64,000 nucleotides of DNA from NCBI GenBank assembly GCA_903877885.1, contig CAIRFN010000006.1, positions 3,342-67,341 on the forward strand, written 5' to 3'. Source of the DNA: an uncultured Candidatus Berkelbacteria bacterium (GTDB lineage Bacteria; Patescibacteriota; UBA1384; UBA12157). Of this stretch, positions 1,933 to 58,540 are shown piece by piece; the stretch's first letter is position 1; every line of letters begins with the position of its first letter. Under the pieces are notes generated by a model, which was not told the DNA's origin, did not search any database, and saw only the letters and a program-made list of their open reading frames with translations. The translations under genes and the position numbers were made by a program.

Positions 1933-3396
1933 ATGCAAATCGGACGATCGAAATTCACAATCGGAGTCTTGATCGGATTTTTAAGCGGGATTTTTTTAGC
2001 TAACTTTATGCCGATTAATTTATGGTGGATGGCCAGATTTTTGATTGTTTTAATCGTTTTAATGCTGGTTTTCTGGTCTAACATTTTGCGACGCTTAATT
2101 ATCTTTTGTCTTTTGGGATTAGTTTTAGGCTTAAGTTATTTTAAGATTTATGACTTAAGAGCATCTTACCATCAACTTGTCTATGGTCAAAAAATGGCCA
2201 TTTCTGGGCAAATTCAGGAACCACCAAAAATTAAACCAACGCAAATCCAGGCGATAATTAGTTACAATGGCGCGAAAATTTTAGTTAATTTACCACGCTA
2301 CCCGGAATATCAATTTGGTGATATTTTAAGTTTCAAAGGGGAGATTACCGATCCCAAAACCATCAAACCAATCGATAATTTCAATTACGGCCAATATTTG
2401 ATTGGCCAAAACATTCGCGGCTGGGTCAAAAACCCTGACACAGATACGATCACCGTAAGACGACCTCCGAGGTCGTCGAACAGTGTTAAATTCAAAAAAA
2501 CAATTTTTCAAACCAGTCAAAAATTTCAAGAAAGTTTAACTAAAACTTTGCCCGAGCCATATGCTTCGTTTCAAATCGGTTTAATTTTGGGTAATCGCAC
2601 GACGCAAATTCCCGATTCGCTGACATCGGCCTTTAATCGGACTGGTACAACTCATATTATTGCTGTAAGCGGTTACAATATTACCATTATTATTTCTATG
2701 CTCGCACTCTGTTTCGCTTTATTTTCTAGGCGGCTGGCTTTTTGGTTAACCTTAATTTTTATCGGTATTTTTATTGTGATGACCGGCGCCTCCGCTTCGG
2801 TAGTGCGCGCCGGAATTTTAGGCGGCTTGGTCGCTTGGGGCAGGTTAGAAGGCCGGCGGATTAATCATTTGATTCTACTTTTATTCGTGACATTCATCAT
2901 GTTACTTTTTAATCCTTACCAAATTCACACCGATGCTTCATTCCAATTATCGTTTCTAGCTTTTGCTGGATTAATTTATGTTTCGCCAATGATCCAAAAC
3001 TTTAGAATCGTTTCAAAATTACCAGAAACCATTCGTGCGGTTTTTTCTGAAACCATGGGTGCGCAAATCGCTTGCTTTCCAATTCTAGTTTATAATTTCG
3101 GCATTATCTCTCTGGTGGCACCAATCGTAAATTGTTTAATCTTGCCTTTTGTGCCACTTTCAATGTTGTTAGGATTTATCGCCGGTATTGGTGGTATGAT
3201 TTGGCTTAAACTTGGTCAGTTGTTGGCTGATATCGCTTGGATAATATTAAAGTATATAATAGTTGTAGAGACCTATTTTTCCCAAATTTCTTGGGCAGCG
3301 ATTTCTTTCAAAACCGCCGAGTGGTTCTGGATACCGATTTATTATGTGGTGATTATTTTATTAATTAATAATAATCATGAAAAATCTAAGATCTAG
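1933..3396 (+). CDS. comEC: ComEC/Rec2 DNA internalization channel, N-terminal membrane part (DUF4131 + competence domain)
   Basis: 487 aa polytopic membrane ORF with the ComEC-type motif region ...FNRTGTTHIIAVSGYNI...; followed in a different frame by the MBL domain ORF. Confidence 0.65.
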   Translation: MQIGRSKFTIGVLIGFLSGIFLANFMPINLWWMARFLIVLIVLMLVFWSNILRRLIIFCLLGLVLGLSYFKIYDLRASYHQLVYGQKMAISGQIQEPPKIKPTQIQAIISYNGAKILVNLPRYPEYQFGDILSFKGEITDPKTIKPIDNFNYGQYLIGQNIRGWVKNPDTDTITVRRPPRSSNSVKFKKTIFQTSQKFQESLTKTLPEPYASFQIGLILGNRTTQIPDSLTSAFNRTGTTHIIAVSGYNITIIISMLALCFALFSRRLAFWLTLIFIGIFIVMTGASASVVRAGILGGLVAWGRLEGRRINHLILLLFVTFIMLLFNPYQIHTDASFQLSFLAFAGLIYVSPMIQNFRIVSKLPETIRAVFSETMGAQIACFPILVYNFGIISLVAPIVNCLILPFVPLSMLLGFIAGIGGMIWLKLGQLLADIAWIILKYIIVVETYFSQISWAAISFKTAEWFWIPIYYVVIILLINNNHEKSKI

Positions 3397-8427: not shown

Positions 8428-9726
8428 ATGAACAGAAAAATACGAGTTTTACTATTATTAAAATTTCCGCTCTATGGTGGCGGAAGTGGTGCTTTCACTC
8501 GTCGGCTGGCTCAAAAATTAGTTGAGACCGGCCGTTTTGACGTTGCCATTGCCGCGCCAGACAAACGCCAAATTCCAGGGATTAAAGTTTACCAAATTAA
8601 ACCAGCCTTTAAAGCGGTTTTTGAAAGCCATCCTGAATGGAAGCGGGCAGTTAAATATAGTGAACTAACTAGTCCAGAATTTAATCGCCAATATCTTTCT
8701 TTTATGAAGGCAATTACGGCTGTAGTTGAGGATTTTAGACCAGATGTTATTCATGTTAATCATGCCCATTTTTTAACTTGGCTGGCTTCCTTTATTAAAT
8801 CTATTTTTGGTATTACCTTTATTGTTTCGGTCCATGGCACAGATATTTACAATACCACTATTGATCGCCGATATTTGGTTTTGCTTCGACAAGCTGTGGA
8901 ACGGGCCGAGCAAATTATTGCGGTTTCACCGCATACTAAAAAATGGTTTTTGAAAGTTTGCGGTAAAAAATTAGCCAAAAAAACCCGAACTATTACTCAC
9001 GCGATAAATGCTGAAACATATGCTATTGAACCAGAAAATTTAACTATTGATGAAAAATATAAGCTTAAAGGTAAAAAATTAGTTTTATTTGTTGGCCGTT
9101 TAACTCGGGAAAAAGGCGTCGAATATTTAATTAAAGCAGCTAAAGATATTCAGGCCGAGATTTTTATTATTGGTGATGGCGTGCGCAAAGATTATCTGGT
9201 TAATTATGCAAAATTGATTGAGACTAAAAATGTCCGTTTTTTGGGTTATTTTGGCAAGAAAAATGCTGATTATTTGAAAGAATTTTATCATCGAGCTGAC
9301 GTTTTAGTTTTGCCTTCGGTTGTTGATGAATCTTTGGGCCTAGTAGTTTTGGAAGCGATGGCTGCTAAAACGCCAGTGGTTGCTTCTAATAAAGGTGGTA
9401 TTCCTTTAGTTATTAAAGATGGCTATAATGGGTTTTTAATTCGAGCCCGTAGTCCTAAAGCAATTTACGAATCAGTCAACAAGATTTTGCAAAACGAAAA
9501 ATTAGCGCAAAGATTAGGTCAAAATGCTTACAAAACAGTGATCGAAAAATTTGACTGGAATGTGGTGGTGCCACAGTTTGAATCGGTTTATAATAAAGCT
9601 GCGGAGATGACTAAAAAATTGCAGTCCAACTTAAAGAAATCTATTTTCGACCGCGAAGATTTGGTTCGCGAACAAATCGAACTTAAAGAAAAAATCGATT
9701 ACGATATTAATGTATTCGATAGTTAA
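8428..9726 (+). CDS. Glycosyltransferase family 4 (GT-B, group 1)
   Basis: 432 aa; C-terminal ...LPSVVDESLGLVVLEAMAAKTPVVASNKGGIPLVIKDGYNGFL typical of GT4 E-x7-E enzymes. Confidence 0.75.
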   Translation: MNRKIRVLLLLKFPLYGGGSGAFTRRLAQKLVETGRFDVAIAAPDKRQIPGIKVYQIKPAFKAVFESHPEWKRAVKYSELTSPEFNRQYLSFMKAITAVVEDFRPDVIHVNHAHFLTWLASFIKSIFGITFIVSVHGTDIYNTTIDRRYLVLLRQAVERAEQIIAVSPHTKKWFLKVCGKKLAKKTRTITHAINAETYAIEPENLTIDEKYKLKGKKLVLFVGRLTREKGVEYLIKAAKDIQAEIFIIGDGVRKDYLVNYAKLIETKNVRFLGYFGKKNADYLKEFYHRADVLVLPSVVDESLGLVVLEAMAAKTPVVASNKGGIPLVIKDGYNGFLIRARSPKAIYESVNKILQNEKLAQRLGQNAYKTVIEKFDWNVVVPQFESVYNKAAEMTKKLQSNLKKSIFDREDLVREQIELKEKIDYDINVFDS

Positions 9727-14335: not shown

Positions 14336-16370
14336 AGTTCAACTTTTAACTGGCGTTGGGCCAAAGACGGTACAAAAATTAGAAAGGTTGGGGATTAATT
14401 CGGTCCGCGACCTTCTTTTTAATTGGCCACGCACGTGGCAGGATTTTAGTTCACCACGCGATATTTCAAGTTTAAGAATTAATGATGAAGCAATTATTAA
14501 AGCAAAAATAAAATCTGTTAAAGAAATTAGAACCAGAAATCGCTGGATGAGTATTATCGAAGCCAATTTGGTTGACGATAAAAATTATGAAATTAAAGCG
14601 ATTTGGTTTAATCAAACTTTTTTAAAAAGTGTTTTACGTGTTGATGATGAATGGCTGTTTTTAGGTAAAATTGGTTGGGATTTTAAAGCTAAACAAAAAA
14701 CTTTAGCCGTCAGTCAAATGGAAAAAGAAGCAGTTATTCTACCAGTTTATTCTGAAACTCCCGGCATAACCAGCAAATTTTTACGCAAATTAATCAAACC
14801 GATTTTAAGCGAAATCGATGCCATAATCGACGATTATTTGCCAGACGAAATCAGAGGATTTTTACTAGACTTACGAACAACGCTTAAGTACATTCATTTT
14901 CCTAACTCCAATGAAAGTTTGGCTAAAGCTAAAAATCGACTCGCTTTTGACGAATTATTTTTAATTGCTCTAAGATTTCTAACCATCAAAAAAGAATTGC
15001 AACAAAATGTGGCGCCGCCGATGCAAATCGATGAAAAAGTTTTGCAAAATTTTACTAAAAAATTGCCATTTAAATTAACTGATGCTCAACGAAAAGTTGC
15101 TTGGGAAATAATTCAGGATTTGGCTAAAAATGTGCCAATGAACCGATTACTGGAAGGCGATGTTGGTTCCGGAAAAACCGTGGTGGCTGCCATGGCTGTG
15201 CTCGTCGCTGCTAAAAATAATTTACAAACAGTCTGGCTTGCGCCAACTGAAATTTTAGCCAATCAACATTATCAAAATATAAAACCGTTGATACACCTCG
15301 TAGGTGTATCAACTGGTTTGTATACCTCGGCCAATAAAATTGCCGATACCCAAAAAGATGATTTAATTATTGGAACACATGCGGTTTTGCAAAAAAATGT
15401 TTCTTTCCCAAATTTGGGCTTAATTATTATTGATGAACAACATCGATTTGGCGTCAAGCAACGCGCTCATCTTCGAAAACCCATACTAACTTCCACCTTT
15501 AGGCAAGCGGTTAGTATGGAAAAAGTTACAATCCCGCATTTACTTAGTATGACAGCCACGCCAATTCCGCGAACACTGGCTTTGGCACTCTATGGCGATT
15601 TAGATCTTTCGATTATCGATCAAATGCCGGCTGGACGACAAACAATTATTACTAAAATTATTAATGAAAAGAATCGCCAAAAAACCTACGATTTTATACG
15701 ATCGGAAATTAAAAATGGTCGCCAAGCTTTTGTTATTTGTCCTTTAATCGAAACTGGCGAAGTAACTACTGGAAAATTATTTGATACCGATCGCAAATCA
15801 GTCATGGAAGAATATAAAAAATTATCAGAACAGATTTTTCCAGAATTTAAGATTGGATTCTTGCATGGCAAAATGAAATCAAAAGAAAAAGAAGCGGTGA
15901 TGAACTCGTTTCACGAACGTGAGCTAAGTATCTTAGTTTCGACTGCCGTGGTGGAAGTGGGGATTGATGTTCCCAATGCCACTGTCATGATGATTGAAAG
16001 CGCTGATCGATTTGGATTAGCACAACTGCATCAATTTCGCGGCCGGGTCGGCCGCGGTAAACATCAATCGTATTGTTTTTTATTAAGCGATTTACGAAGC
16101 GAAAAGTCTGCACAAAGGCTAAAAGCAATGGAAGATTGTTTTGATGGTTTTAAATTAGCCCAAATTGATTTAGAATTAAGAGGCTCGGGCGAAGTAGTCG
16201 GGCTCAAACAATCTGGGCTTGATAATTTAAAAATGGCATCACTTTCCGACACGATTTTAATCGGTGAGGCCCGCGCTGCGGCGCAAAAAATTGTCGAAGA
16301 CGGCATTGAAAAATATCCTTTACTTTGCGCTAAATTAAAAGAGTTTGAAATAGAAAAACATTTGGAATGA
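14319..16370 (+). CDS. recG: ATP-dependent DNA helicase RecG
   Basis: 683 aa; Walker A GDVGSGKT, DEQHRFGV, and the helicase C-terminal motifs QLHQFRGRVGRG. Confidence 0.9.
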   Translation: MNLETKVQLLTGVGPKTVQKLERLGINSVRDLLFNWPRTWQDFSSPRDISSLRINDEAIIKAKIKSVKEIRTRNRWMSIIEANLVDDKNYEIKAIWFNQTFLKSVLRVDDEWLFLGKIGWDFKAKQKTLAVSQMEKEAVILPVYSETPGITSKFLRKLIKPILSEIDAIIDDYLPDEIRGFLLDLRTTLKYIHFPNSNESLAKAKNRLAFDELFLIALRFLTIKKELQQNVAPPMQIDEKVLQNFTKKLPFKLTDAQRKVAWEIIQDLAKNVPMNRLLEGDVGSGKTVVAAMAVLVAAKNNLQTVWLAPTEILANQHYQNIKPLIHLVGVSTGLYTSANKIADTQKDDLIIGTHAVLQKNVSFPNLGLIIIDEQHRFGVKQRAHLRKPILTSTFRQAVSMEKVTIPHLLSMTATPIPRTLALALYGDLDLSIIDQMPAGRQTIITKIINEKNRQKTYDFIRSEIKNGRQAFVICPLIETGEVTTGKLFDTDRKSVMEEYKKLSEQIFPEFKIGFLHGKMKSKEKEAVMNSFHERELSILVSTAVVEVGIDVPNATVMMIESADRFGLAQLHQFRGRVGRGKHQSYCFLLSDLRSEKSAQRLKAMEDCFDGFKLAQIDLELRGSGEVVGLKQSGLDNLKMASLSDTILIGEARAAAQKIVEDGIEKYPLLCAKLKEFEIEKHLE

Positions 16371-21365: not shown

Positions 21366-22874
21366 ATGCCTTTAGCCAAAGTTAACTCGGCAGCCGTAAT
21401 TGGATTGGATGCTTCGCCAGTTGAAGTGGAAGTGGATATTTCAAACGGTCTGCCGTCTTTTAGTATTGTGGGACTGCCGGACAAAGCGATTGAAGAATCG
21501 AAAGAGCGAGTTCGCTCGGCGATTAAAAATTCTGGAGCAAATTTTCCAATGAGCCGAATTACAGTTAATTTAGCGCCAGCCGATATTAAAAAAGAAGGTC
21601 CAGCTTATGATTTGGCTATTGCCTTAGGAATACTTGTTGCTGATGGCCAAATTCCAGATATCAGCGAAGATATTTTATTGGTTGGCGAACTGGCTTTGAA
21701 TGGTCGACTTCGACACATCAACGGCATTTTACCGATTGCCATTAGTTTAAATAAGAAGTACTCACAAATCATTTTACCAAAAATCAATGCCGAAGAGGCG
21801 AGTCTGGTTGAAGATATGAATATTTTACCAGCCGAAACTTTGAAAGATTTAATTTATTATTTTAAAAAAGAAAAAATTCTACCCTTTTATACCAAGAAAA
21901 TCACAATCAAAGAAAGAGACGATTACGAGTTTGATTTTGCTTTCATTAAAGGTCAGGAACAAGCTAAACGGGCCTTGGAAATTGCCGCTTCGGGCGGCCA
22001 CAATTTGATTTTTTGTGGGCCGCCCGGATCTGGTAAAACCTTACTGGCTCGAACTATTCCCTCAATTTTACCCAAACTAACCAAAGAAGAAATTTTGGAA
22101 GTGACGAAAATTTATTCTGTTGCCGGACTCTTATCAAACGATTTGCCAATTATCTATGAACGGCCGTTTCGTGCACCGCACCATACCACTTCCAGTGTTG
22201 CCTTGGTTGGTGGCGGCGCCTATCCGCGGCCGGGTGAAATTACTTTAAGTCATCGTGGCGTCTTGTTTATGGATGAATTTGCCGAATTTCCTCGTTCAGT
22301 CTTGGAAGCTTTGCGTCAACCCTTGGAAGACGGCGTGATTACAGTCAGTCGTGCACAAGGTTCAATTACTTATCCAGCCAAATTTATTTTAGTGGCAGCG
22401 CAAAACCCGTGTCCTTGTGGCTATTTGGGGGATTTGAAAAAGCATTGTATTTGTACGCCAGTTCAAATTTTACGTTATCAAAAACGTGTTTCTGGGCCAC
22501 TCCTTGATCGAATCGATATTCATATTGAAGTTCCTCGAGTCGATTACGAAAAGCTTTCTTCGAATGAAATTGCCGAAAGTTCCAAAAAGGTTAGAGAACG
22601 AGTCGAATCTGCCAGGTTAATTCAACTTAAAAGATTTGGTAAGACTAATTCGGAAATGTCGCCGCGAGAAATTAAAAAATATTGCGCGCTCGCGCCTGAC
22701 GTTCAAGAGATTTTAAAATTGGCTATGGCTCAATATGATTTGTCGGCTCGTCAATATACGCGGATTTTGAAAGTCGCTCGAACAATTGCTGATTTGGCTG
22801 AATCAGAAAATATCGAAAAAGAGCACTTAATGGAAGCGATTCATTATCGAGCCAAAGAAAAAAGCACTTATTGA
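21366..22874 (+). CDS. comM: YifB/ComM family Mg-chelatase-like AAA+ ATPase
   Basis: N-terminal Lon-like domain (AAVIGLDASPVEVEVDISNGLPSFSIVGLPD), Walker A GPPGSGKT; 502 aa. Confidence 0.9.
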   Translation: MPLAKVNSAAVIGLDASPVEVEVDISNGLPSFSIVGLPDKAIEESKERVRSAIKNSGANFPMSRITVNLAPADIKKEGPAYDLAIALGILVADGQIPDISEDILLVGELALNGRLRHINGILPIAISLNKKYSQIILPKINAEEASLVEDMNILPAETLKDLIYYFKKEKILPFYTKKITIKERDDYEFDFAFIKGQEQAKRALEIAASGGHNLIFCGPPGSGKTLLARTIPSILPKLTKEEILEVTKIYSVAGLLSNDLPIIYERPFRAPHHTTSSVALVGGGAYPRPGEITLSHRGVLFMDEFAEFPRSVLEALRQPLEDGVITVSRAQGSITYPAKFILVAAQNPCPCGYLGDLKKHCICTPVQILRYQKRVSGPLLDRIDIHIEVPRVDYEKLSSNEIAESSKKVRERVESARLIQLKRFGKTNSEMSPREIKKYCALAPDVQEILKLAMAQYDLSARQYTRILKVARTIADLAESENIEKEHLMEAIHYRAKEKSTY

Positions 22875-22881
22875 ATATGTT

Positions 22882-22920
22882 AAACCATATATCCCACCTC
22901 CAGGGTGGGCTATATGGTTA
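22882..22920. repeat. REP-like palindrome TAACCATATATCCCACC-TCCA-GGGTGGGCTATATGGTTA, a member of the window's REP family
   Basis: Near-perfect 17-bp inverted arms. Lies between the convergent comM and small minus-strand ORF, so may act as a bidirectional terminator. Confidence 0.7.
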
Positions 22921-23095
22921 CAAAAAAACCGGCTGCTAAGAGACCGGCCAGGACAGTGAGCACCTGGATAACATTAGTGGCGAAATTTTCGACCTTAGAA
23001 ACATCAGGCGCATCGGCCAGCGCCGGACTGATTGAAGCGAACACTACGAGAAGTGTACCGCCCAAATAAACAATGAGGGATCGGAAAAGACTCAT
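22910..23095 (-). CDS. Small secreted/membrane protein (signal peptide then hydrophobic C-terminus; possibly pilin-like)
   Basis: 61 aa: MSLFRSLIVYLGGTLLVVFASISPALA | DAPDV...VLTVLAGLLAAGFFVTI. Confidence 0.35.
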   Translation of the reverse strand: MSLFRSLIVYLGGTLLVVFASISPALADAPDVSKVENFATNVIQVLTVLAGLLAAGFFVTI

Positions 23096-23358
23096 ACAAA
23101 TCCTTTCTTCCCTCCAAGTTAAAATATATTTTATCTACAAAATAATTTTAATCCAAACTCATCTATTAATTATGGCATATCAGAGTAAGCGCTTTCTTGT
23201 CAATAGGGCGTCGACAGATTAAGTATGATAATTTCATATTTCAAACCTTATAAAATTGATAACGGGATATCCGTAAGGGCGTTAGAATATATTTTATGGG
23301 CAATTTAGATTTTGTAAATATTCCTGAATTAAAACCAATAATTTGATATAATTACTTT

Positions 23359-24129
23359 ATGGAACTAATTAGAGTTAATACAAAAGAAATTTTTACAAAA
23401 ACCAATTTGCCTGGGGCCGATTATGTAATTAACCAATATGTCGGTTGTGAACACAATTGTGCTTATTGTTATGCCAAATTTATGTCTCGCTGGAAAAAAC
23501 ATGGTCAGTGGGGCACGTGGGTCGAAGCCAAAATGAACGCTCCAGAGTTAGTAAAAAATAAAACTGTTTCTGGCTGGGTGTTTATGAGTTCCGTCTCAGA
23601 CGCCTATCAACCAATCGAGAAAGATCTTAAATTAACTAGACATGTATTAGAAAACCTAGACAAAAGAATAAAACTCTCTATTTTAACAAAATCAGACTTA
23701 GTTTTAAGAGATATTGATCTACTTAAACAATTTAAAGATTCGGAAATCGGTCTCACAATTAATACTTTTGTCGGTAAAGAAAAAGATATTTTTGAACCTA
23801 ATTCACCTTCAAATCAAAAAAGAATTGAAGCTCTTAAGATTCTTAAAGAAAACGGTTTAAAAACTTATGCTTTTATTAGCCCGTTAATACCTGGCTTGAT
23901 TGATCTGGAAAAACTAATAGATGAAACTCGAGAATTTGTAGATTATTATTGGTTAGAAGTGTTGAATTTAAGAGGAGCTGGCAAAGAATTTTCCAATATT
24001 TTAGAAACAGACTATCCGAAAAGTTTTCGAATACTAAAAAAACCTGACTTGTTCAATCAATTTATAAATGAGTTAAAAATCATTTGTAAGAAAAAAGGAA
24101 TCAAAGTCAGAGGATTCGAGGAGCACTAG
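23359..24129 (+). CDS. Radical SAM protein, SplB/DNA-photolyase-like (COG1533-type)
   Basis: GCEHNCAYCYA (CxxxCxxC radical-SAM cluster motif) near the N-terminus; 256 aa. Confidence 0.65.
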   Translation: MELIRVNTKEIFTKTNLPGADYVINQYVGCEHNCAYCYAKFMSRWKKHGQWGTWVEAKMNAPELVKNKTVSGWVFMSSVSDAYQPIEKDLKLTRHVLENLDKRIKLSILTKSDLVLRDIDLLKQFKDSEIGLTINTFVGKEKDIFEPNSPSNQKRIEALKILKENGLKTYAFISPLIPGLIDLEKLIDETREFVDYYWLEVLNLRGAGKEFSNILETDYPKSFRILKKPDLFNQFINELKIICKKKGIKVRGFEEH

Positions 24130-24593
24130 CTCATTTTAGCTTCCCACTCTTTTATAATATCCAAGCATTCGTTCTCAAAATCACCGATATATTCAAGCTC
24201 TATTTGACGATTATTTTTACTATTTATTTCACTGTTTACATTAAAACCTTCATAGAAATTTTTTCCAATCATTTCTTCAGTTCTTTTGCAACCATAAACA
24301 ATCTTCGAAATATTAGCCCAATTTGCCACTGAAAAACACATCAAACACGGTTCTAACGCAGCATACAATATACAACCGGACAAATCTGTTGTCCCAAGTT
24401 TTTTACATGCTTTCCGAATAGCGGAAGTTTCCGAATGTTCCGTTGGATCATTTAATTGTCTGCCAAGACTAATTCCTTCAGAGATTATTTCGCCATCTTT
24501 TACGACCACGGCACCAGCTGGAAATCCGCCTTGCTCAAATGAAATTTTTGCTTGCTTGATTGCTTCTTTAAGAAATATTTTATTTTGTTCCAT
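24126..24593 (-). CDS. CMP/dCMP-type nucleoside deaminase (TadA-like)
   Basis: HSE...PCLMC zinc-binding deaminase motifs; 155 aa. Confidence 0.75.
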   Translation of the reverse strand: MEQNKIFLKEAIKQAKISFEQGGFPAGAVVVKDGEIISEGISLGRQLNDPTEHSETSAIRKACKKLGTTDLSGCILYAALEPCLMCFSVANWANISKIVYGCKRTEEMIGKNFYEGFNVNSEINSKNNRQIELEYIGDFENECLDIIKEWEAKMS

Positions 24594-24901
24594 ACTTAAA
24601 TATTAAACTATTTTGAAATTTAAAAATAGGCCCGAACTATTTGCAAACCTAATTACTTTGTGATAAGCCTAACTTATATGAGGAGGGGCAATTTTATTTT
24701 CAAGAGGTTGAATACCCCGTCAGCTTGCTGCGGGGATGAAAACCTATGAAAACAAACTTTTCCGCAGGAATACCGCTTTACCTAAAGGCGTCAGCTTGTT
24801 GCGAGGTAGTTTATGGCAGGGAGAATTTATGGAATCCTTCCAAAAAATCAATTTAATTGCCGCCCTGAAGTTCTCGCCCCAACTGACAGATCTGTTTAAT
24901 T

Positions 24902-24942
24902 TAACCTTATATAGCCCACCCTGGAGGTGGGCTGTGGTATAA
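24902..24942. repeat. REP-like palindrome, inverted orientation (…AGCCCACC-CTGGA-GGTGGGCT…)
   Basis: Loop CTGGA is the reverse complement of the TCCAG loop in the downstream copy. Confidence 0.65.
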
Positions 24943-24949
24943 TAAATAG

Positions 24950-25621
24950 ATGAATACAAGAAAAACACAATTAACCAACGATCAGCATTACCATATTTTT
25001 AATCGAAGTATAGCGAAATTTGTCATTTTTAATAATGATGATGATTATCTTCGAATGAAAGAGATGTTGAATCTATATCGTTTTGCTGATTTTAATTATA
25101 AATACTCTAAATTTATAATTTTGGATGCGAATCATCAGTCAGCAATTATTCATGATATTACTAAGAAAAATGATTTACTGGTCGAGATAGTGGCGTATAG
25201 TTTAATGCCAACGCATATTCATTTGGTTTTAAAACAGGTGGCTGATGGCGGAATTACAAAATTTATGGGCAAAATTTCTAATAGTTATACTCGATATTTT
25301 AATATCAAACATCATCGTAAAGGTCCACTTTGGGAAGATCATTTTAGAAATGTTTTGGTTTCAAGAGATGAACAAATGTTACATCTAACACGTTACATTC
25401 ATTTAAATGCTAGTTCGGCTGGTTTAGTTGAAAATCCTTCTGACTGGCCATATTCTTCTCTAAAAGAATATACCGACCAAGATGATTATGGATTTTGCGA
25501 TTTTAAGGATGTTATTGATATAGTACCGGCAAAATATAAAAAATTTGTTTTAGATTATAAGGATTATCAACGACAAATTTCTTTAATCAAAACCATTCTA
25601 ATTGATGATTATTCAGGATAA
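24950..25621 (+). CDS. REP-associated tyrosine transposase (RAYT; IS200-like Y1 HUH transposase)
   Basis: HUH motif PTHIHLVL and catalytic Tyr region LTRYIHLN; 223 aa; flanked by inverted REP hairpins. Confidence 0.75.
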   Translation: MNTRKTQLTNDQHYHIFNRSIAKFVIFNNDDDYLRMKEMLNLYRFADFNYKYSKFIILDANHQSAIIHDITKKNDLLVEIVAYSLMPTHIHLVLKQVADGGITKFMGKISNSYTRYFNIKHHRKGPLWEDHFRNVLVSRDEQMLHLTRYIHLNASSAGLVENPSDWPYSSLKEYTDQDDYGFCDFKDVIDIVPAKYKKFVLDYKDYQRQISLIKTILIDDYSG

Positions 25622-25624
25622 TCT

Positions 25625-25657
25625 AACCATATATCCCACCTCCAGGGTGGGCTATAA
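25625..25657. repeat. REP-like palindrome (TAACCATATATCCCACC-TCCAG-GGTGGGCTATA)
   Basis: Same sequence as the 22882 copy; immediately follows the RAYT stop codon. Confidence 0.7.
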
Positions 25658-25709
25658 TTTCGGTAGAAATTTCGGCGACTTTAGTCTATATGGTTAAGCA
25701 CTTATTAGT

Positions 25710-26036
25710 CTATTGAATATGAAGAAGTTTAAAGAGGAAATTGCCAAAAGTTAAGAGAACGTGATGTTTCTGATCTAAAATGGCTAGCACCAAAATTGCG
25801 ACAGCCAAAACTGCAACCACAATACCGGTTTTAGCTAAATCAGCTTTAATTTGTTTTAAGTTTTGAATTTCAACAACTGGTTTAGCGATGTTCGCGGCCA
25901 GATTTTTTTTAATCGATTCGCTCGGCTCAAGTTTGGTATTTCCAACCGTTTCAGCTTTATTGCTAGTTTGGGCAATCTGATTTAATACTTGGTTCTTGAT
26001 TTGGCGAACAAATTTAGCTTTGTTTTTCTTTGACAT
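25710..26036 (-). CDS. Hypothetical protein with C-terminal TM helix
   Basis: 108 aa ORF downstream of tRNA-Cys on the minus strand. Confidence 0.3.
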   Translation of the reverse strand: MSKKNKAKFVRQIKNQVLNQIAQTSNKAETVGNTKLEPSESIKKNLAANIAKPVVEIQNLKQIKADLAKTGIVVAVLAVAILVLAILDQKHHVLLTFGNFLFKLLHIQ

Positions 26037-26069: not shown

Positions 26070-26144
26070 TGGAGGCGTCGCCGGGACTTGCACCCGGGTA
26101 CGCGGTTTTGCAGACCGCTCCCTGAACTGCTCGGGCACGACGCC
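26070..26144 (-). tRNA. tRNA-Cys(GCA), CCA encoded
   Basis: Reverse complement GGCGTCG-TG-CCCG...GCGGT-CTGCAAA-ACCGC...CCGGG-TGCAAGT-CCCGG-CGACGCC-T-CCA folds as a canonical cloverleaf. Confidence 0.8.
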
Positions 26145-26145
26145 A

Positions 26146-26805
26146 TTACTTATAATAATTTTTATATATTAAGTTTTTTCGGTTTAGAAATAGATTATTA
26201 CTTTCTTCATAAATTTTGTCAAGAACTATTTTGGAATCATGAGTATAATATCTTAGTTGATAGCTATCCTTACAAAATAAAACAGGTCTTTTTTTAATTT
26301 GTAAAAATTTCGATAGCTTTTCTGATAAATTTTCCAGGAACAAGGAATTGCCGCAGGTAAAAACAGTTAATAGTAAATTATTTTTTGTTAAAAATACTGA
26401 ACCATCTCCGTCAAAATACCCTCTGACAAAATGCGGAAAAAATAATGTAGGAATTTCAGGAAATTTAAGTGTTAATGATTTTCGTGTTGTGACACCGAGA
26501 TTAATTAGATCATCAAATATTTTATGATCGCCAATTCTTAATAAGTATAAAACTTTCGAGAAATAAGTACTTTTTTTAAAGTTGATTTTAATAGGTTTTC
26601 TTAACTGTAATTTATGACTCGAGTTCAATATTTTTTTAATTTTTAACAATATTTCTTCGTCTTTGCTTGTTATCCTAAGATATTTCCCTCTTAAATATGA
26701 TGCATCTTCCAAACTTCCATCAGCAAAAATATACCCCAATATATAAGCCATTTCTGGAGTCCATTTTTCAAAGAAACTAGAATTAACTTGATATTTAATG
26801 CCCAT
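26146..26805 (-). CDS. LAGLIDADG homing endonuclease, double-motif single-chain
   Basis: Motifs ILGYIFADGSL and VRGYFDGDGSV about 100 aa apart; 219 aa. Sits 1 nt from tRNA-Cys and 6 nt from the upstream tRNA on the same strand. Confidence 0.8.
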   Translation of the reverse strand: MGIKYQVNSSFFEKWTPEMAYILGYIFADGSLEDASYLRGKYLRITSKDEEILLKIKKILNSSHKLQLRKPIKINFKKSTYFSKVLYLLRIGDHKIFDDLINLGVTTRKSLTLKFPEIPTLFFPHFVRGYFDGDGSVFLTKNNLLLTVFTCGNSLFLENLSEKLSKFLQIKKRPVLFCKDSYQLRYYTHDSKIVLDKIYEESNNLFLNRKNLIYKNYYK

Positions 26806-26811: not shown

Positions 26812-26886
26812 TGGAGCGGGTAACGGGAGTCGAACCCGTATCTCATCCTTGGCAAGGACGTATAAGAACCGTTATACGATACCCGC
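26812..26886 (-). tRNA. Putative tRNA-Gly(GCC), CCA encoded, slightly atypical D-arm
   Basis: Reverse complement GCGGGTA...CGTCC-TTGCCAA-GGATG...ACGGG-TTCGACT-CCCGT-TACCCGC-T-CCA: acceptor, anticodon (GCC) and T arms fold well, but the D-arm spacer is irregular. Needs tRNAscan-SE. Confidence 0.5.
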
Positions 26887-33962: not shown

Positions 33963-33991
33963 CTCCTCCAGGGTAACTTGGAGGTTTTTTT
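33963..33991 (+). terminator. Rho-independent terminator (CCTCCAGGGTAACTTGGAGG + T7)
   Basis: Hairpin plus T-run; the stem sequence resembles the REP core CCTCCAGGG. Confidence 0.55.
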
Positions 33992-47800: not shown

Positions 47801-47986
47801 AAAATGCCGGAGAGTTTTTCAACGGAACCGATTGAGATGACACGATTAAGAGCTATTGACGACGGTCGTGGTAGGCCGGAGTCAATGATATATGATGATT
47901 TGGCGACTGGTACCGATTTAAACAAACCTCATATGTATGGCGGCTCCGCTTGGCACAGATCGCTAGAAGGTAGGACTAATGGGTGA
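44894..47986 (+). CDS. Large hypothetical protein (1030 aa) heading the tandem paralog array
   Basis: Long ORF with a good RBS (AAGGAGAATAAAAGGATG); its stop overlaps the start of the first paralog. No domain recognisable by eye. Confidence 0.5.
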   Translation: MGEFQNHSVEFDNLGGLTSEDRQAILMRGDLRKRSQELKVNALNLNPPESTPEHKAYYERILSLVNREADGEEKMDPAQAEATLDEKEKGMRVKIATMGEIAPNFGGYLYANLAKYEQLAGQDFSEDLSKSKEYMDRATHIPKLVPSNLLPDAITLGIQKRFLDTQELPSKEKIAQAAQMDPELIKSYALVLHENEREDFLKLIPEDQRRQIGIELDTSVSSVLHQSLIEKNTPEEEQRRQVRMRLFRELRSSLSETDPSDKKTVQLMGEALGTLGEDARQLILELIRDETDSREEGVDRQTDHLPRIMKVMIDNFDDWRGNDIILQTAASPELNHHMSIYLFGKLVDKGYLPKDVADWWNTRKTTASNEGREPDDEKFRLDILKGTVDELGVIPNKEILEFISKDENWQGDDGQTVPVSERFERIASSQAEFSGVKSNSELVDLLKNNENKAMIYFLLHGGDDRFNLINNYSFDKFKEMLGLISDLEINERPIQSFKETLLNSGMNEGQANDVITRLRAGHFPLPNSQQAYQEVSFEISENAALNNANGEIGQVLGKDQLGVVLTFPMYREYLEADGSEQAQEMFARMQQATTFTDRQAIIAEINGLYPDFQERIKNDLQDSWIKFGDKMVIETTLDQVLTSDQIQIHGEELLPKLDAKRIDLKRINKELLIALKSENRNVSDLNSEISRKKKARTGLEQGLARQTDVGKRGELQRKIDEIDSDIANLETRRAAVGEMKVDDRFTGLSKEEKEAEVDRLSQEIIALTEKSPSAIFTFITMQVLGEQRLRENDITLVKEMESHLQGPFQTINDVLTYERPKTESKKRTRVGLQYLDKVDRLATMVRFADSKICCFSSSNYEMRVQHNTPNKIWVASINKDPMSFVLSMEMPQVQTDQPGKKVNENIGFIFGSFAQDNEGKLGVMMNGIYYAPGIEDARQVEQIMGGVEKIFEGLPINTEVIATQYGGSVKMPESFSTEPIEMTRLRAIDDGRGRPESMIYDDLATGTDLNKPHMYGGSAWHRSLEGRTNG

Positions 47987-48878
47987 AAATTTAGAGCCTT
48001 TTGAAATTCAACGCGAGGCATTAGCTGAAAGATTAAAACTCAAAGAACAATGGGAGTCACAGATTAGTATTCTTAATGAAACAGGAATTCTACAATTGCT
48101 CCCAGAAAGTCAGGAGCTAGGGATCGTTGGTATTGATGGTGAAGAATATCCAATTCCAGATTATAAAGAAATCATAGATCGTCTTACACCAGAAAAAGCA
48201 CAAATTCTGGAGCAGAAAATTGAACAAGGGTTTAGTAAAATGCTATTAGTGCCTTTTGGTATGTCCATGGAGACCTTAGCTCAAAGGTACAGAGAAGTAG
48301 TTCTTAAAAAAAGTAATGAAGAAACTCTTTTGGATACTGATGGTTTAAGGATTGAGTTAGACAAAAATAACCCCTTCCCAAACCTAATATCCCTGAACAC
48401 TGACATCGATAAAAGACTGTCCTACTATCCAAGTAATTTTGAGGAGCAAGAGGGCTTCACTAAGTCTGAGATACTCAGTAGAGGTGCCGGGTTTAAGATC
48501 GAGTTTATCGAGGATCGACCAGACTTATCTGATAACCGGCAAGCTCAAGGTGGAAGATTCAGTCCACCATCCAGGAGTATGCCAGCCAGGTATCTAGAGA
48601 TAATCCAGAACGATGAAAACATGTCGAATGAACAAGGATGGACGATGGAAACGTGGTTAACATATGCTATTACGAATTTAAAAGAAAGAAACCAACAAAT
48701 TGATAGTAATCGTTGGGGAAAGTTTTCTTGGCTTTTGGGCGCCTATTTCCCAGCACAAGCTCCTAGTGTGCCAATAGTGATGTATGCAGGTTGGTCTAAA
48801 GGCAAAGCAGAATTATTTAGTGGTGAATTTGATGATAGGTCAACCAACGCTAGTCTACGTACTTCAGTGGAGATATAA
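47979..48878 (+). CDS. Tandem paralog 1 of the 7-member family (no variable repeat)
   Basis: Conserved N-terminus LEPFEIQREALAERLKLKEQWESQISILNETGILQLLPESQELGIVGIDGEEYPIP; C-terminus ...ASLRTSVEI. Confidence 0.6.
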   Translation: MGENLEPFEIQREALAERLKLKEQWESQISILNETGILQLLPESQELGIVGIDGEEYPIPDYKEIIDRLTPEKAQILEQKIEQGFSKMLLVPFGMSMETLAQRYREVVLKKSNEETLLDTDGLRIELDKNNPFPNLISLNTDIDKRLSYYPSNFEEQEGFTKSEILSRGAGFKIEFIEDRPDLSDNRQAQGGRFSPPSRSMPARYLEIIQNDENMSNEQGWTMETWLTYAITNLKERNQQIDSNRWGKFSWLLGAYFPAQAPSVPIVMYAGWSKGKAELFSGEFDDRSTNASLRTSVEI

Positions 48879-48880
48879 CT

Positions 48881-49798
48881 ATGAATAATGAATCATTACA
48901 ACCATTTGAAATTCAACGTGAAGCGTTAGCTGAGCGATTGAATCTAAGAGAACAGTGGGAATCACAAGTTAAAATCTTGAATGAGACTGGTATTTTGGAG
49001 ATCCTTCCAGAGGCCCAAGAGTTGGGAATCATTGGTATTGACGGTCGAGAGCATCCAGTACCAGATTTTCAGGAAATTATGTCTCGAATTTCGCCGGAGC
49101 AGATGGAAGTCTTAGAGAAAAAGAATGAGCAAGGATTCAATAAAATGGTCCTAGTTCCTTTTGCTGTACCGCTAGACATATTGATTGATCGATACAAAAA
49201 GCTTCTTATTGAAAAAGATGCGGAAGGATCACTCTCATCAACTGATGGTTCAAAACTTAATCTCGATCGCGACCAACCAATCTATGTTTGGGACAAATAT
49301 ACCGGTGCTGATGCAAGCGGTGAGTTAGTTTATTTCCCGAATACATTTGATCAACAAAATCACGGTGGTAAAACAAAAAATACCCTAATACAAGAAGGTA
49401 AATCTTGGCAATTTGAATTACTTGAAGAAAATATTAATATCCCTGCTAAAGGTCAGGGAGAGATACTTGACGGCCGCAAACAACTAGAAGCCGGACAATC
49501 ACCAAATCAATATTTAAAAGAATTACAAATCGATCCTCAATATCAAAATGAGGTCGGCTTGACACCAGAAGCATGGTTGGTTTTAGCTATAACCCAATTA
49601 AAAGAAAACCATGGCCAAATTGACGATTATCAAGGTCAAGGCAAAATAAATTTTCTTACGGGTGCCTATTTCCCCGGTTCTGACAGTGTCCCGCGCGCGC
49701 GCTGGAGCCGTGACGGTCGTCGGGCGTTCTTGGACAGGAGCGTTCCCTCTGGCTCGCTTTCGAGCATTGGGTGTCGCTCCTCGGTGGAAATTCAGTAA
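48881..49798 (+). CDS. Tandem paralog 2; DGR target gene carrying variable repeat VR1 at its 3' end
   Basis: Same conserved N-terminus. The last ~38 codons (…VPRARWSRDGRRAFLDRSVPSGSLSSIGCRSSVEIQ) are the VR copy of the template repeat. Confidence 0.7.
   Translation: MNNESLQPFEIQREALAERLNLREQWESQVKILNETGILEILPEAQELGIIGIDGREHPVPDFQEIMSRISPEQMEVLEKKNEQGFNKMVLVPFAVPLDILIDRYKKLLIEKDAEGSLSSTDGSKLNLDRDQPIYVWDKYTGADASGELVYFPNTFDQQNHGGKTKNTLIQEGKSWQFELLEENINIPAKGQGEILDGRKQLEAGQSPNQYLKELQIDPQYQNEVGLTPEAWLVLAITQLKENHGQIDDYQGQGKINFLTGAYFPGSDSVPRARWSRDGRRAFLDRSVPSGSLSSIGCRSSVEIQ
49676..49789 (+). repeat. DGR variable repeat VR1
   Basis: ~114 bp matching the template repeat at 54708..54821, except at the template's adenine positions (all 17 differences fall on them). 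Confidence 0.8.
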
Positions 49799-49893
49799 TT
49801 TGATATTTGGCTTTTAAACTTTCTTTTTTCTTTATCTTTGATTCGGTATCCCGCCTTCGGCGGGCCACTGCAAAAATTTTAAAGGAGATAGAT

Positions 49894-50781
49894 ATGGAGA
49901 GTAATATGAGTGAAAATCTTCAACCATTTGAAATACAGCGCGAAGCACTTGCTGAACGGCTAAAACTCAAAGACCAGTGGGCATCACAGGTTAAGATGCT
50001 GAATGAAGCGGGTGTTTTGGAATTGCTTCCAGAGAGTCAGGAGCTAGGAATTATCGGAATTGATGGACAAGAATATGCAATACCTAGTTATGAACAAATT
50101 TTAGGTCGTATTACTCAAGGAAAAGCTGAGATTTTAGAAAATCAAACAGAAAACGGTTATAAGCAATTAATTTTAACTCCTTTCGCAATGCCTTTGAGGC
50201 AACTGTGTAAATTAGTTGAAGGATCATTTAAGAAAGTCTTATCAGAAAACCAAGTTGTTGATGCTTATGGAAGTGATGAAAGAATCAATTCTGATAACTT
50301 TATTGAAGATAATGGAAATATTCTCGATTCCGATATTAACGGAGAAATGGTTTACTACCCAAACTCAGACGATAGCAAAGACGGTTTGACAAAAATAGAT
50401 TGCATTAAAGAAAATGGTGGTTGGGAAATTGATTTTATTGCCAAAGAACCTCAGAAATACATACAAGATATCAACAAGCAAAAAAAGGCCATGGTGCAAG
50501 GTGGATTTAGAGGATTAACTCTTGAAAGCTGGTTGACTCAGTCAATGAATTTTTTCCAGAACGAGAAAAAGTTTTCAGATTATCTCGAACCATGTCTTTT
50601 GGCGGGATCGTCTCTGCGAGAGAAGAGGACTATCCCGGCAGCATGGTTTGCTGATAATCGATCTAATTACAAAGGTAAATATTTAGTAATAAAAACTTTA
50701 GAAGAAAATCGTAATCAAAATAAAGCATTTGGCGGTTTTTCGCAAACTGACGGAAATGCGCGTTTCAGCGTGAATTTATAA
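49894..50781 (+). CDS. Tandem paralog 3
   Basis: Start chosen at ATG 49894 after RBS AAAGGAG; the ORF track starts earlier at 49807. N-terminus MESNMSENLQPFEIQREALAERLKLKDQW... Confidence 0.6.
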   Translation: MESNMSENLQPFEIQREALAERLKLKDQWASQVKMLNEAGVLELLPESQELGIIGIDGQEYAIPSYEQILGRITQGKAEILENQTENGYKQLILTPFAMPLRQLCKLVEGSFKKVLSENQVVDAYGSDERINSDNFIEDNGNILDSDINGEMVYYPNSDDSKDGLTKIDCIKENGGWEIDFIAKEPQKYIQDINKQKKAMVQGGFRGLTLESWLTQSMNFFQNEKKFSDYLEPCLLAGSSLREKRTIPAAWFADNRSNYKGKYLVIKTLEENRNQNKAFGGFSQTDGNARFSVNL

Positions 50782-50790
50782 AGGGAAAAT

Positions 50791-51675
50791 ATGAATGAAT
50801 CCTTACAACCATTTGAAGTCCAAAGAGAAGCTTTAACTGAAAGGCTAAAACTCAAAGAGCAGTGGGAATCGCAAATAAAAATACTTAACGAAGTTGGAAT
50901 TCTTGAAATTCTACCTGAAAGTCAGGAGCTGGGAATCATTGGAATTGATCAAAAAGAATATCCAATCCCCAATTATGAAGATATTCTTAATAAAATTACT
51001 CAAGAACAAGCAGACTTAGTAACCCAAAAAACTGAACAGGGGTTTAATAAGTTAATATTGGTTCCCTTCGCTAAATCCCTTCAAGAAACCATAGAACTCT
51101 ATGCTAGATTATTAGTCCAAAAAAAACACGAAAAGACCCTTGTAGGGGCTGAAAACGAAGAATTTGACCTCGATATCAATAATCCTATCGTTGATATGAC
51201 TAAAAATGATTCTTTGTTTTATATTCCATCAAATGGAAAAAGATTCACGAAATCGGAATTTCTTGTAAGCGAAATGCGTTACCCGGGTTGGCAAGTCGCA
51301 TTAATCGAAGATTCTCCCGTCCCGTTCGAGAAAGATTCAGATAAAAAGGAATATGGCTACAAACAACCAAATGGCGATTTAGTAAGAGATTGGAGTCATC
51401 AGCTAAAGCTAATGAAAGAGAACGAATCTTATATCGGCGAAGAGGAAATATCTCCAGAGGCATGGCTTGCATATGCCATCACTAACTTAAAGGAAAAAAA
51501 CCAGCAGATTGATTTTCAAAATGAATCAATTGACAGGTGTTGGCTTGGTGCTTTTAGTAAAAAAGGAGAAACTGTTTACTCTTTATTTAAAAACAATCAA
51601 ATTAACTTTCATATCTATTCTCCCTTTGAGAGGGAGAAATCAAAAGCTATTTTTAGGTCGGTCGTACAGATTTAA
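50791..51675 (+). CDS. Tandem paralog 4
   Basis: MNESLQPFEVQREALTERLKLKEQWESQIKILNEVGILEILPESQELGIIGID... Confidence 0.6.
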   Translation: MNESLQPFEVQREALTERLKLKEQWESQIKILNEVGILEILPESQELGIIGIDQKEYPIPNYEDILNKITQEQADLVTQKTEQGFNKLILVPFAKSLQETIELYARLLVQKKHEKTLVGAENEEFDLDINNPIVDMTKNDSLFYIPSNGKRFTKSEFLVSEMRYPGWQVALIEDSPVPFEKDSDKKEYGYKQPNGDLVRDWSHQLKLMKENESYIGEEEISPEAWLAYAITNLKEKNQQIDFQNESIDRCWLGAFSKKGETVYSLFKNNQINFHIYSPFEREKSKAIFRSVVQI

Positions 51676-51704
51676 ACTATTTAAATTTAGATTGAAAAGG
51701 TAAT

Positions 51705-52592
51705 ATGAATGAATCATTACAACCATTTGAAATCCAAAGAGAATCCTTAGCTGAAAGACTAAAACTAAAAGACCAATGGGAATCTCAAATTCGTGTACTA
51801 AATGAGGCTGGTATTTTAGAAATTCTTCCTGAAAGCCAAGAATTGGGAGTTATTGGCGTTGATGGTCAGCAATATCCGATACCAGAATACTCTGATGTGC
51901 TTAACCAACTAACACCAGAAAATTTGGAATTATTAGAGGCAAAACAGGAAGAAGATTATAACAAACTAATTATTACGCCGTTTGCGATGCCTTTAAAACA
52001 ACTAATTGATAGATATTCTTCTCTTCTAAAGAGAAAAGACAAAACAGGAGAACTTAAAGATTCACAAGGAAATAGTATAAATATATCTGACGGTGATGAA
52101 CCTATTAAGTTACCTGTTAAACTTATCGAAGATGGTTACGATGACACACTCTTGTATTTTGGAAAATTGGGCGAAGAACAAGAGACTGGTAAAACAAAAA
52201 AGAAATCGATAGAGCAAGGAAAAATTTGGCACTTTTGTCTGGTTCAGGATACAAACTCTCTTGAAAACAAGAGGATTGAGACGAAAATCGATTCTTATCT
52301 TCAAGAAGGCGGTTTATCTGGATATACGCTTGAAGATTGGTTGATGCATGCAATTACGAATTTGCAAGAAAGTGGAAAACAAATAGATTGCACTGATTCC
52401 AAAGAAATAATCCCAAATTGGTTAATGGGATCGTACCTTCCAAAAGATGATTGTTATTTCAGAGCAGCCTATGATATTCACGATCCCTCTTCTACTGGCG
52501 CTGTCATCGGCGGCGCAAAAGGAGAAATTTTGAAAAGTCGAAAGAATTTTATTAATTTTAGAAACTTGATTGAGCTAGGAAGCAATTTATGA
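51705..52592 (+). CDS. Tandem paralog 5
   Basis: MNESLQPFEIQRESLAERLKLKDQWESQIRVLNEAGILEILPESQELGVIGVDG... Confidence 0.6.
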   Translation: MNESLQPFEIQRESLAERLKLKDQWESQIRVLNEAGILEILPESQELGVIGVDGQQYPIPEYSDVLNQLTPENLELLEAKQEEDYNKLIITPFAMPLKQLIDRYSSLLKRKDKTGELKDSQGNSINISDGDEPIKLPVKLIEDGYDDTLLYFGKLGEEQETGKTKKKSIEQGKIWHFCLVQDTNSLENKRIETKIDSYLQEGGLSGYTLEDWLMHAITNLQESGKQIDCTDSKEIIPNWLMGSYLPKDDCYFRAAYDIHDPSSTGAVIGGAKGEILKSRKNFINFRNLIELGSNL

Positions 52593-58397: not shown

Positions 58398-58540
58398 TTA
58401 ACCATATGTTACCACCTCCAAGGTGGCAACGTGGTAAATTTTAACCATATAGCCCACTTCCGAAGTGGGCTGTGAAGTGGGCTGTGACAGGTTAATAACC
58501 ATAGATTCCACCTCTAAGGTGGACAGTGATAAGGTTATGA
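58398..58540. repeat. Cluster of three REP-like palindromes, each preceded by TAACCATA
   Basis: TTACCACC-TCCAA-GGTGG..., AGCCCACT-TCCGA-AGTGGGCT (plus a partial duplication AAGTGGGCTGTG) and TTCCACC-TCTAA-GGTGGA. Compensatory changes in the stems (CCCACC/GGTGGG vs CCCACT/AGTGGG) maintain the hairpins. Confidence 0.7.

Follow-up and report, generated by a model that had tools for sequence, protein, structure and literature searches.

The 64 kb stretch of DNA analyzed here (hereafter the window, to which all in-window counts refer) probably carries a REPtron-like locus, in which a gene for a class 2 (TnpAREP-like) Y1 HUH transposase is bracketed by cognate hairpins resembling repetitive extragenic palindromic (REP) sequences, within a Berkelbacteria-like genome of the Candidate Phyla Radiation (CPR) (Table 1). 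The nearest named homologues of the RecG protein of the window belong to Candidatus Berkelbacteria (65% identity). A first-pass annotation of the same DNA had proposed a REP-associated tyrosine transposase (RAYT) flanked by inverted REP hairpins. At its core this proposal is upheld, with a RAYT-type Y1 transposase, cognate REP-like hairpins, and no TnpB-like gene among the adjacent ORFs, but the hairpins lack GT[AG]G feet, inversion of the flanking copies is not family-wide, and the profile score of the protein falls short of a curated RAYT cut-off (see below). The host had been called unusual; it is a CPR genome, but not an isolated case. Relatives of the RAYT-like protein form at least 1406 clusters at 90% identity, and judging from the named ones (Berkelbacteria, Woykebacteria, and “Patescibacteria group”) the transposase clade is one of CPR bacteria. 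RAYTs and REPs have been characterized mainly in Proteobacteria, Cyanobacteria, and Bacteroidetes, from complete genomes, and two large surveys do not include CPR (Bertels 2017; Quentin 2018, PMC6006769). Text searches turned up no publication that connects RAYTs or REPs to CPR/Patescibacteria.

By both sequence and predicted fold, the transposase is closer to TnpAREP than to IS200-type transposases. The protein exceeds the Pfam cut-off for Y1_Tnp (35.7 vs. 23 bits), and when RAYT and IS200 profiles are compared, as the first-pass annotation had suggested, the former is preferred (NCBIfam REP_Tyr_transpos, 62.6 bits, vs. IS200, 19 bits). A sequence search of PDB places E. coli TnpAREP (4ER8) at the top, at 1.6e-6 when the single sequence is used and 1.4e-6 for the profile, with IS200-type and ISDra2-type chains at about 1e-3 or worse. 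A fold search using an AlphaFold model (28-sequence alignment; pLDDT 84.6) likewise places 4ER8 first (E 2.4e-8; TM 0.69 on the target), ahead of ISDra2 and IS608 (1.4e-5 or weaker). The HUH motif and catalytic Tyr read earlier in this open reading frame (ORF) are well founded: H89, H91, Y149, and N153 are invariant in an alignment of 28 homologues, as is a Thr directly before the HuH. The Y motif of the clade is YIHLN(P/A), with N where IS200 transposases have Q (Y---Q); class 2 transposases have YxxxNP (Quentin 2018, PMC6006769). By motif only, the protein is placed closest to subclass 2.1 (Y[IV]HLNP; median 238 aa). No helix-turn-helix (HTH) match was obtained in a Pfam scan of the C-terminal 50 residues, and no TnpB-like neighbor was identified among adjacent ORFs; together with N in place of Q, the latter sets the locus apart from an IS200/IS605 TnpA accompanied by TnpB, a case that had been named as one that would refute a RAYT assignment.

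The hairpins form a defined set within the window. The palindromes described in the first-pass annotation around the gene (loops CTGGA and TCCAG) correspond, within a few bases, to units B and C; those reported at 22882 and three times at 58398..58540 were found at 22880-22922 (unit A) and 58398-58538 (units D–F), and the compensatory stem changes (CCCACT/AGTGGG and CCACC/GGTGG) are as described. The annotation had counted at least six copies, to which are now added a unit at 15281-15319, a weaker one at 2449-2487, and a decayed one at 15477-15523. The core CCCACY-N5-RGTGGG has four matches in the window vs. 0.00 expected from 100 shuffles, folding of units A–F as single-stranded DNA (ssDNA) gives z-scores of -2.8 to -6.2, and units A and C are 100% identical over 32 nucleotides (nt) at a distance of 2.7 kb. 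REPs are imperfect extragenic palindromes of 20-40 nt, placed mostly downstream of ORFs or between convergent genes, and the units fit this description: A and D–F are placed between convergent genes. Some units are intragenic, as is also known for REPs. The 3′ foot of unit A supplies the last codons and the stop of a 61-aa ORF (22910-23095, minus strand). The REP-like stems previously reported at 33963..33984 do not belong here: they form a T-tailed, terminator-like hairpin before a tRNA-Leu gene, which shares only a 10-mer with the units and was rejected because it scores just 9 bits (E 3.8) with the family model. Also rejected was a repeated GTCAGCTTGYTGCG motif at 24715/24790, the folding of which is no better than that of shuffles (z -1.5). 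The window lacks the L006-type hairpin (GTACAC...GTGTAC), which comes from a second RAYT in those samples, and Rfam returned nothing relevant at the locus except a sub-threshold match of unit B to the Pseudomonas small RNA P9.

The same architecture recurs in related genomes. About 90 homologous loci were fetched, yielding 75 distinct genes, 72 of them with both flanks, and a matched hairpin pair brackets the gene in most of these 72 CPR loci. Local similarity between the 100 nt upstream and the 100 nt downstream of a gene averages 25.8, vs. 10.3 across loci, and in 41/72 loci it lies above the 99th percentile of the cross-locus scores. The repeat unit is ~39-45 nt long, with an 11-bp stem and 3-nt loop standing between a 5′ (A)ACC foot and a 3′ GGT(T) foot. 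Among 117 units the feet are 5′ ACC in 91% and 3′ GGT in 94% (21-24% in random windows), with the longer forms AACC in 66% and GGTT in 52%. In a loop-anchored alignment of 113 distinct units from other species, the apical stem pairs (CACCT / AGGTG) are nearly invariant, stem pairs 6-11 take all four Watson–Crick types and are paired in 76-91%, and the lower pairs are species-specific and covary. Overall, 91.9% of cells are paired (66.4% when shuffled; 39-46% in slid controls), and the covariation score is 0.625 vs. 0.18 for shuffles, none of 500 of which exceeds it. Because two apical pairs served for selection of the units, the informative part of this covariation is the lower stem. REP-spacer-REP doublets, which the first-pass annotation had proposed to look for, occur on both sides of the gene in two loci (L084 and L088; spacers of 20-23 nt), and units D–F are arranged in tandem as a triplet, their loops oriented alike; a REPIN-type orientation is ambiguous, however, as each unit is palindromic. 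Across loci, CCA loops read CCA on the sense strand of the gene in 17 cases vs. 2, whereas ACG/CGT loops are mixed, CGT being commoner upstream and ACG downstream.

The hairpins are tightly integrated with the ends of the gene. In the window, the 3′ foot of unit B merges into an extended -10 box (of the form TGnTATAAT), and there is no Shine–Dalgarno sequence at the gene start. A -10 hexamer (at least 5/6 match) lies 3-13 nt before the start codon in 54/72 loci, 37 of these 54 having the TG extension; a Shine–Dalgarno-like sequence is found in only 10 of the 72. The box ends exactly 6 nt before the ATG in 41/72 loci, which suggests a leaderless mRNA for the transposase gene. At the other end, the downstream unit starts anywhere from 3 nt before to ~10 nt after the stop codon; in many loci the gene's own stop codon is a TAA contributed by a TAACC foot or by the stem.

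Units are also dispersed away from the gene. A covariance model (R1) that was trained on the 113 units from other species, and contains no sequence of the window, recovers A–F (13.9-30.8 bits) together with 15281-15319 and 2449-2487. In related loci, solo units carrying the arms of the locus itself number 13 in 611 kb outside the cassette, vs. 11 in 2948 kb for foreign arms. When family-level criteria are applied, by which 47% of flanking units are recovered, 642 kb contain 14 solo units, and shuffles contain none; many of the 14 have stems unlike those of the local gene. Solo units are thus real but sparse. The palindromes do occur away from the gene; their absence elsewhere in the genome had been named in the first-pass annotation as grounds for rejecting a RAYT/REP assignment. 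Among contigs of GTDB representatives, which evidently do not include the source genome, a degenerate REP pattern occurs in two stretches only, namely a Lewinellaceae coding region, which looks like chance, and a homologous locus (L005).

Two units lie within recG. The intact unit at 15281-15319, the best-scoring of the window, encodes KPLIHLVGVSTGL. It was rejected as a simple insertion because RecG orthologues are equally long there (ILAPFGIKVGLLT); one of them, P0124, has the same variant peptide. The complete 39-nt palindrome stands in place of 13 native recG codons. Some 200 nt downstream, the decayed unit at 15477-15523 adds codons in frame to a RecG loop of variable length, and a syntenic locus, L096, has an intact in-frame unit in the same loop (AAACC-CATCCCGACTT-CCA-AGGTTGGGATG-GGTT, encoding KPIPTSKVGMGS). 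The outer stems of the two loop units differ by what read as compensatory changes. This fits one old insertion in which pairing has been kept, with recurrent insertion as the alternative. At the protein level only, the loop peptides of other RecG orthologues (TSKV, TCQVG) would fit a CACCT-NNN-AGGTG core in that frame.

The gene and its hairpins form part of a larger block of ~2.8 kb (22880-25695) that is, by comparison with L096, an insertion. Locus L096 and the window have a common gene order (recG ... IPPT, yifB, a small convergent gene, and SBP). In L096 the stop of yifB abuts that of a convergent 107-aa gene, 40% identical to the window ORF 25710-26036; in the window, yifB and this 108-aa gene are parted by the block. 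Flanking the block is an 18/26-nt target duplication, and each copy contains a non-functional repeat of the 3′ end of the gene on the far side. Since these 3′-end copies are useless, the junction of the abutting convergent genes must have been duplicated on arrival of the block, leaving both genes intact. The block ends in 11-nt inverted termini (TTAAACCATATA / TATATGGTTAA). Between unit C and its displaced outer 3′ arm lie ~30 nt (25657-25690; ATTTCGGTAGAAATTTCGGCGACTTTAGTC) that are bracketed by repeated CTATA and partly resemble the duplicated target sequence. A second target duplication, of ~46 nt with 6 mismatches, was found in L029, where it repeats the 3′ end of the upstream gene (sugar-transferase-like, as read from its C-terminus). 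Among 51 cassettes only that of L029 is genuine, the candidates in L084 and L088 being REP doublets and the remainder background, so long duplications are not a general feature. In Logan contigs L097 and L002 the breaks fall exactly at units A and C, as their identity over 32 nt would lead one to expect. Contigs retrieved through the exact YifB protein were considered as an empty-site variant and rejected: they only break at unit A and are uninformative on polymorphism. In a comparison of two other syntenic loci, two REP units identical over 34 nt flank a methyltransferase gene in L013 (9218-9961), whereas L033 has a single unit (8500-8560) and lacks the gene, representing either the gain of a REP-bounded gene or a deletion between units.

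Several observations weigh against a REPtron-like interpretation. The protein score of 62.6 bits is below the curated NCBIfam equivalog cut-off of 80 bits (NF047646), and the hairpins have no canonical REP foot (GT[AG]G or CGTC). The density of ~8-9 units in the 64 kb window, and of ~1 per 20-50 kb among relatives, is much lower than in classical REP/REPIN populations. The loops of the flanking units are flipped in 30 loci and the same in 27, so an inverted arrangement is no family rule; the opposite orientation described in the first-pass annotation holds for the window, where the loop of unit B is flipped relative to the other copies, but because each unit is almost perfectly palindromic, its symmetric feet included (TAACCATATA...TATATGGTTA), it depends on nothing more than the 5-nt loop and a single mismatch. 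That the transposase acts on the hairpins is a proposal modeled on TnpAREP and IS608. Gene position differs among the window, L059, and L096 despite an otherwise common gene order (in L059/L005, a closer relative, the cassette lies upstream of yifB instead), and two loci carry target duplications, both of which are more transposon-like than expected of a domesticated gene. Peel-and-paste by a Y1 enzyme would, moreover, not be expected to leave long target duplications, which may stem from selection for events that spare both abutting genes, or from another route of insertion. Finally, subclass 2.1, the nearest by motif, was reported without REPs (Quentin 2018, PMC6006769). With the REP-bounded block itself an insertion, the gene may be less domesticated than classical RAYTs.

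The cassette or the larger block could accordingly be viewed as an autonomous IS200-like transposon, with the flanking hairpins as its ends, the solo hairpins as one-ended derivatives or akin to miniature inverted-repeat transposable elements (MITEs), and no domesticated RAYT; we regard this as unlikely. The cassette is compact (~760 bp), and its subterminal hairpins adjoin the start and stop codons much as in IS200, which speaks for this view, as do the variable position of the gene within a conserved backbone, the inserted block with its duplicated target (and L029 as a second case), the scarcity of solo copies, and the pair L070/L074, in which the gene is 88% identical and the flanks have no similarity. 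Yet an IS200-like element would not account well for the target duplication, as IS200/IS605 elements make none, nor for the N in the Y motif (Q in subclass 1.1), the closer match of the protein to TnpAREP, or the absence of a TnpB-like gene from the adjacent ORFs. No near-identical genes in two different contexts were found among the homologous loci: all 18 gene pairs at 99% identity or more have the same flanks wherever these are comparable, and the exact window protein (P0001) occurs on 17 contigs from several samples with identical neighbors every time. The 64 kb window holds a single copy of the gene. In the syntenic loci L013 and L033 the gene (86% nucleotide identity) is better conserved than its flanks (72-74%), and a search of viral contigs found no relatives of the transposase. 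Insertion and variable position argue for mobility on an evolutionary time scale; an active insertion sequence (IS) is made less likely by the single context in which the gene is fixed within species and by the lack of duplicates.

It is very improbable that the hairpins are only cis-regulatory, i.e., an operator at the promoter and a terminator or mRNA stabilizer past the stop codon, with the other copies in the window unrelated. Such a role would agree with the fusion of the upstream unit to the -10 box at a fixed distance, the downstream unit at the stop codon, and the flagging of unit C by a terminator scan; however, most units have no T-run, solo units that share these feet and this apex are found at sites far from the gene and never in shuffles, in-frame units lie inside recG in two species, units A and C are identical over 32 nt despite their separation, and doublets and a triplet exist.

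The best-matching known system, in sequence and fold, is the TnpAREP (RayT/YafM) REPtron of E. coli (PDB 4ER8; Ton-Hoang 2012, PMC3333891; Messing 2012, PMC3479197), which has the same Y1 HUH fold and likewise consists of a lone gene bracketed by cognate palindromes that are also found elsewhere, between convergent genes; the doublets that flank the gene in L084 and L088 add to the likeness. TnpAREP is shorter (165 vs. 223 aa) and ~16% identical, the protein of the window having an additional N-terminal strand-helix and two C-terminal helices, and its HuH lies in a different context (here T-H-I-H). Its REPs have a 5′ GTAG, unlike the ACC/GGT double feet and conserved CACCT apex described here; copy number is far lower in the CPR loci, and the promoter is of leaderless type and fused to a hairpin. 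More broadly, the consensus motifs tabulated for the subclasses have D or N before the HuH (Quentin 2018, PMC6006769, Table 1), in contrast to the invariant Thr of the CPR clade.

The Y motif of the clade matches that of TnpAY1 subclass 2.1 (Bertels Group 1, TIRYT; Y[IV]HLNP), the most IS-like RAYT group, and similarities extend to protein length, a C-terminal extension, and the inverted termini of the window block (Quentin 2018, PMC6006769; Di Nocera 2013, PMC3733652). Members of subclass 2.1 differ in having terminal inverted repeats with GGGGWSAS, where the CPR genes have hairpin flanks and no such repeats, an HuH of the form NH[VYF]H, and a C-terminal HTH/DnaA_C-like domain, for which there is no Pfam match here. 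The double-foot REPs of subclass 2.4 have a foot and its reverse complement at the unit ends, and their intragenic insertions keep the frame, as in the CPR units, but their foot is GT[AG]G / C[TC]AC, they are hosted by Cyanobacteria and Bacteroidetes, and the proteins differ in motif (NH[IFV]H and YIxNNP) (Quentin 2018, PMC6006769). IS200 (subclass 1.1) is comparable in its small size, lone Y1 gene, and subterminal hairpins near the ORF ends; its Y---Q motif, multiple near-identical copies, and frequent association with TnpB were not seen here. Units within genes, such as those in recG, resemble intragenic REPs and the Rickettsia palindromic elements (RPEs), and the unit termini likewise give stop codons to neighboring ORFs; those repeats carry GTAG or CGTC tags, and RPEs have no dedicated transposase (Di Nocera 2013, PMC3733652).

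By analogy with TnpAREP and IS608, the transposase of the REPtron-like locus would recognize the folded hairpin, through its apex and feet, on ssDNA, most likely at replication forks. Cleavage beside the feet via Tyr149, with a metal site formed by H89, H91, and N153, would be followed by rejoining of the ends, and such cut-and-rejoin events could spread or reshuffle hairpin units and REP-bounded segments. By the same analogy, binding at the upstream hairpin could autoregulate the gene. A more far-reaching proposal, which we consider doubtful, is that the clade constitutes an undescribed, CPR-widespread subclass of Y1 HUH transposases with its own ACC/GGT double-foot, CACCT-apex repeat, which would move REP-bounded blocks into convergent-gene junctions with 18-46 nt duplications and write hairpin peptides, kept by compensatory change, into surface loops of DNA-repair proteins such as RecG. 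If true, the moving of blocks and writing of peptides would represent a mode of action unlike the peel-and-paste of IS200/IS605.

Table 1. Features of the REPtron-like locus and hairpin units in the window (bits and E-values are those of the family model; z, folding z-score).
Feature	Position	Strand	Details
Possible REP unit in comEC-like ORF	2449..2487	+	Apex GACCT-CCG-AGGTC; weak; 21 bits, E 5e-4, z -2.6
Intact REP unit in recG	15281..15319	+	AAACC-GTTGATACACCT-CGT-AGGTGTATCAAC-TGGTTT; 33 bits, E 6e-8 (best of window), z -8.3
Decayed REP unit in variable-length RecG loop	15477..15523	+	14-aa in-frame insertion; 8.1 bits; outer 10-bp stem intact
Left target copy	22862..22879	+	AAGCACTTATTGAATATG; yifB 3′ end and non-functional copy of 3′ end of 108-aa gene
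REP-bounded block, ~2.8 kb	22880..25695	.	Unit A, 61-aa ORF, radical-SAM gene, deaminase gene, unit B, RAYT-like gene, unit C; absent from syntenic L096
REP unit A	22880..22922	+	Complete palindrome between yifB and convergent 61-aa ORF; left end of inserted block; 30.5 bits, E 4e-7, z -6.2
REP unit B	24904..24942	+	Directly 5′ of transposase gene; stem GCCCACC / GGTGGGC, loop CTGGA; 25.5 bits, E 1.8e-5
Extended -10 box	24935..24943	+	TGgTATAAT, fused to 3′ foot of unit B; followed by AAATAG, then ATG; ends 6 nt before ATG
RAYT-like Y1 HUH transposase gene	24950..25621	+	223 aa; Pfam, NCBIfam, and PDB sequence and fold matches
HUH motif H89-I-H91	25214-25222	+	Within MPTHIHLVL
Catalytic Tyr149	25394-25396	+	In RYIHLN; motif RYIHLNA, Y149 and N153
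REP unit C	25622..25662	+	Loop TCCAG; starts 1 nt past stop codon; 25.4 bits; 32 nt identical to unit A
Displaced outer 3′ arm of unit C	25687..25696	+	TATATGGTTA; right end of inserted block
Right target copy	25696..25721	+	AAGCACTTATTAGTCTATTGAATATG; non-functional copy of yifB 3′ end and real 3′ end of 108-aa gene
REP unit D	58398..58440	+	Apex CACCT-CCA-AGGTG; first of tandem triplet between convergent genes; 29.2 bits
REP unit E	58441..58496	+	Apex CACTT-CCG-AAGTG; 12-nt tandem duplication in 3′ arm; 30.8 bits
REP unit F	58494..58538	+	Apex CACCT-CTA-AGGTG; most diverged of triplet; 13.9 bits, E 0.1

The window encodes further features of interest. A free-standing, LAGLIDADG homing-endonuclease-like ORF of 219 aa (Pfam LAGLIDADG_3; 26146-26805, minus strand) lies between tRNA-Cys (26070-26144) and tRNA-Gly (26812-26886) genes, with spacers that are nearly nil. 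A group I intron (60437-60664, plus strand; Rfam 51.9 bits vs. a gathering threshold of 50 bits), for which no host gene was identified, directly follows a 230-aa ORF with an N-terminal HTH (59732-60424) and lies ~0.9 kb downstream of a tRNA-Val gene. Seven tandem paralogues of ~300 aa each, in ~900-nt units with 64-72% DNA identity, occupy 47979-54421; the one member tested had no Pfam match. A perfect 26-nt inverted repeat (54843-54868 / 55859-55884) brackets ~1 kb containing a 173-aa ORF with no Pfam match, and this segment could be a small IS or an invertible segment. At 56203-57214 (plus strand), what is apparently a split reverse-transcriptase gene occupies two overlapping frames (RVT_1, 56203-56844; YGDD motif, 56810-57214); past it are a PLD-like nuclease gene (57247-57972, minus strand) and a small HTH gene (58048-58254, plus strand), just upstream of the D–F triplet.

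Precedents exist for each ingredient of the REPtron-like locus: the REPtron itself, double-foot palindromes, in-frame REPs in repair genes, and stop codons supplied by REPs. Because all of these phenomena are precedented elsewhere, the finding extends a known kind of RAYT/REP system rather than founding one. A CPR-wide clade, a hairpin with ACC/GGT feet and a CACCT apex, and a fixed promoter fusion were not found described in the literature. CPR genomes are ~1 Mb in size, densely coding, and thought to be poor in repeats. The at least 1406 clusters, together with a strongly conserved hairpin-promoter-gene-hairpin layout, point to a long-lived association of enzyme and hairpin even in such streamlined genomes. 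The comparative set defines the apex and feet as candidate determinants of recognition, and for predicted leaderless expression in CPR, the fixed 6-nt spacing between -10 box and ATG offers a clean example. Footprints of how REP-type elements may move are provided by the block insertion, with its duplicated target, and by the in-frame recG units.

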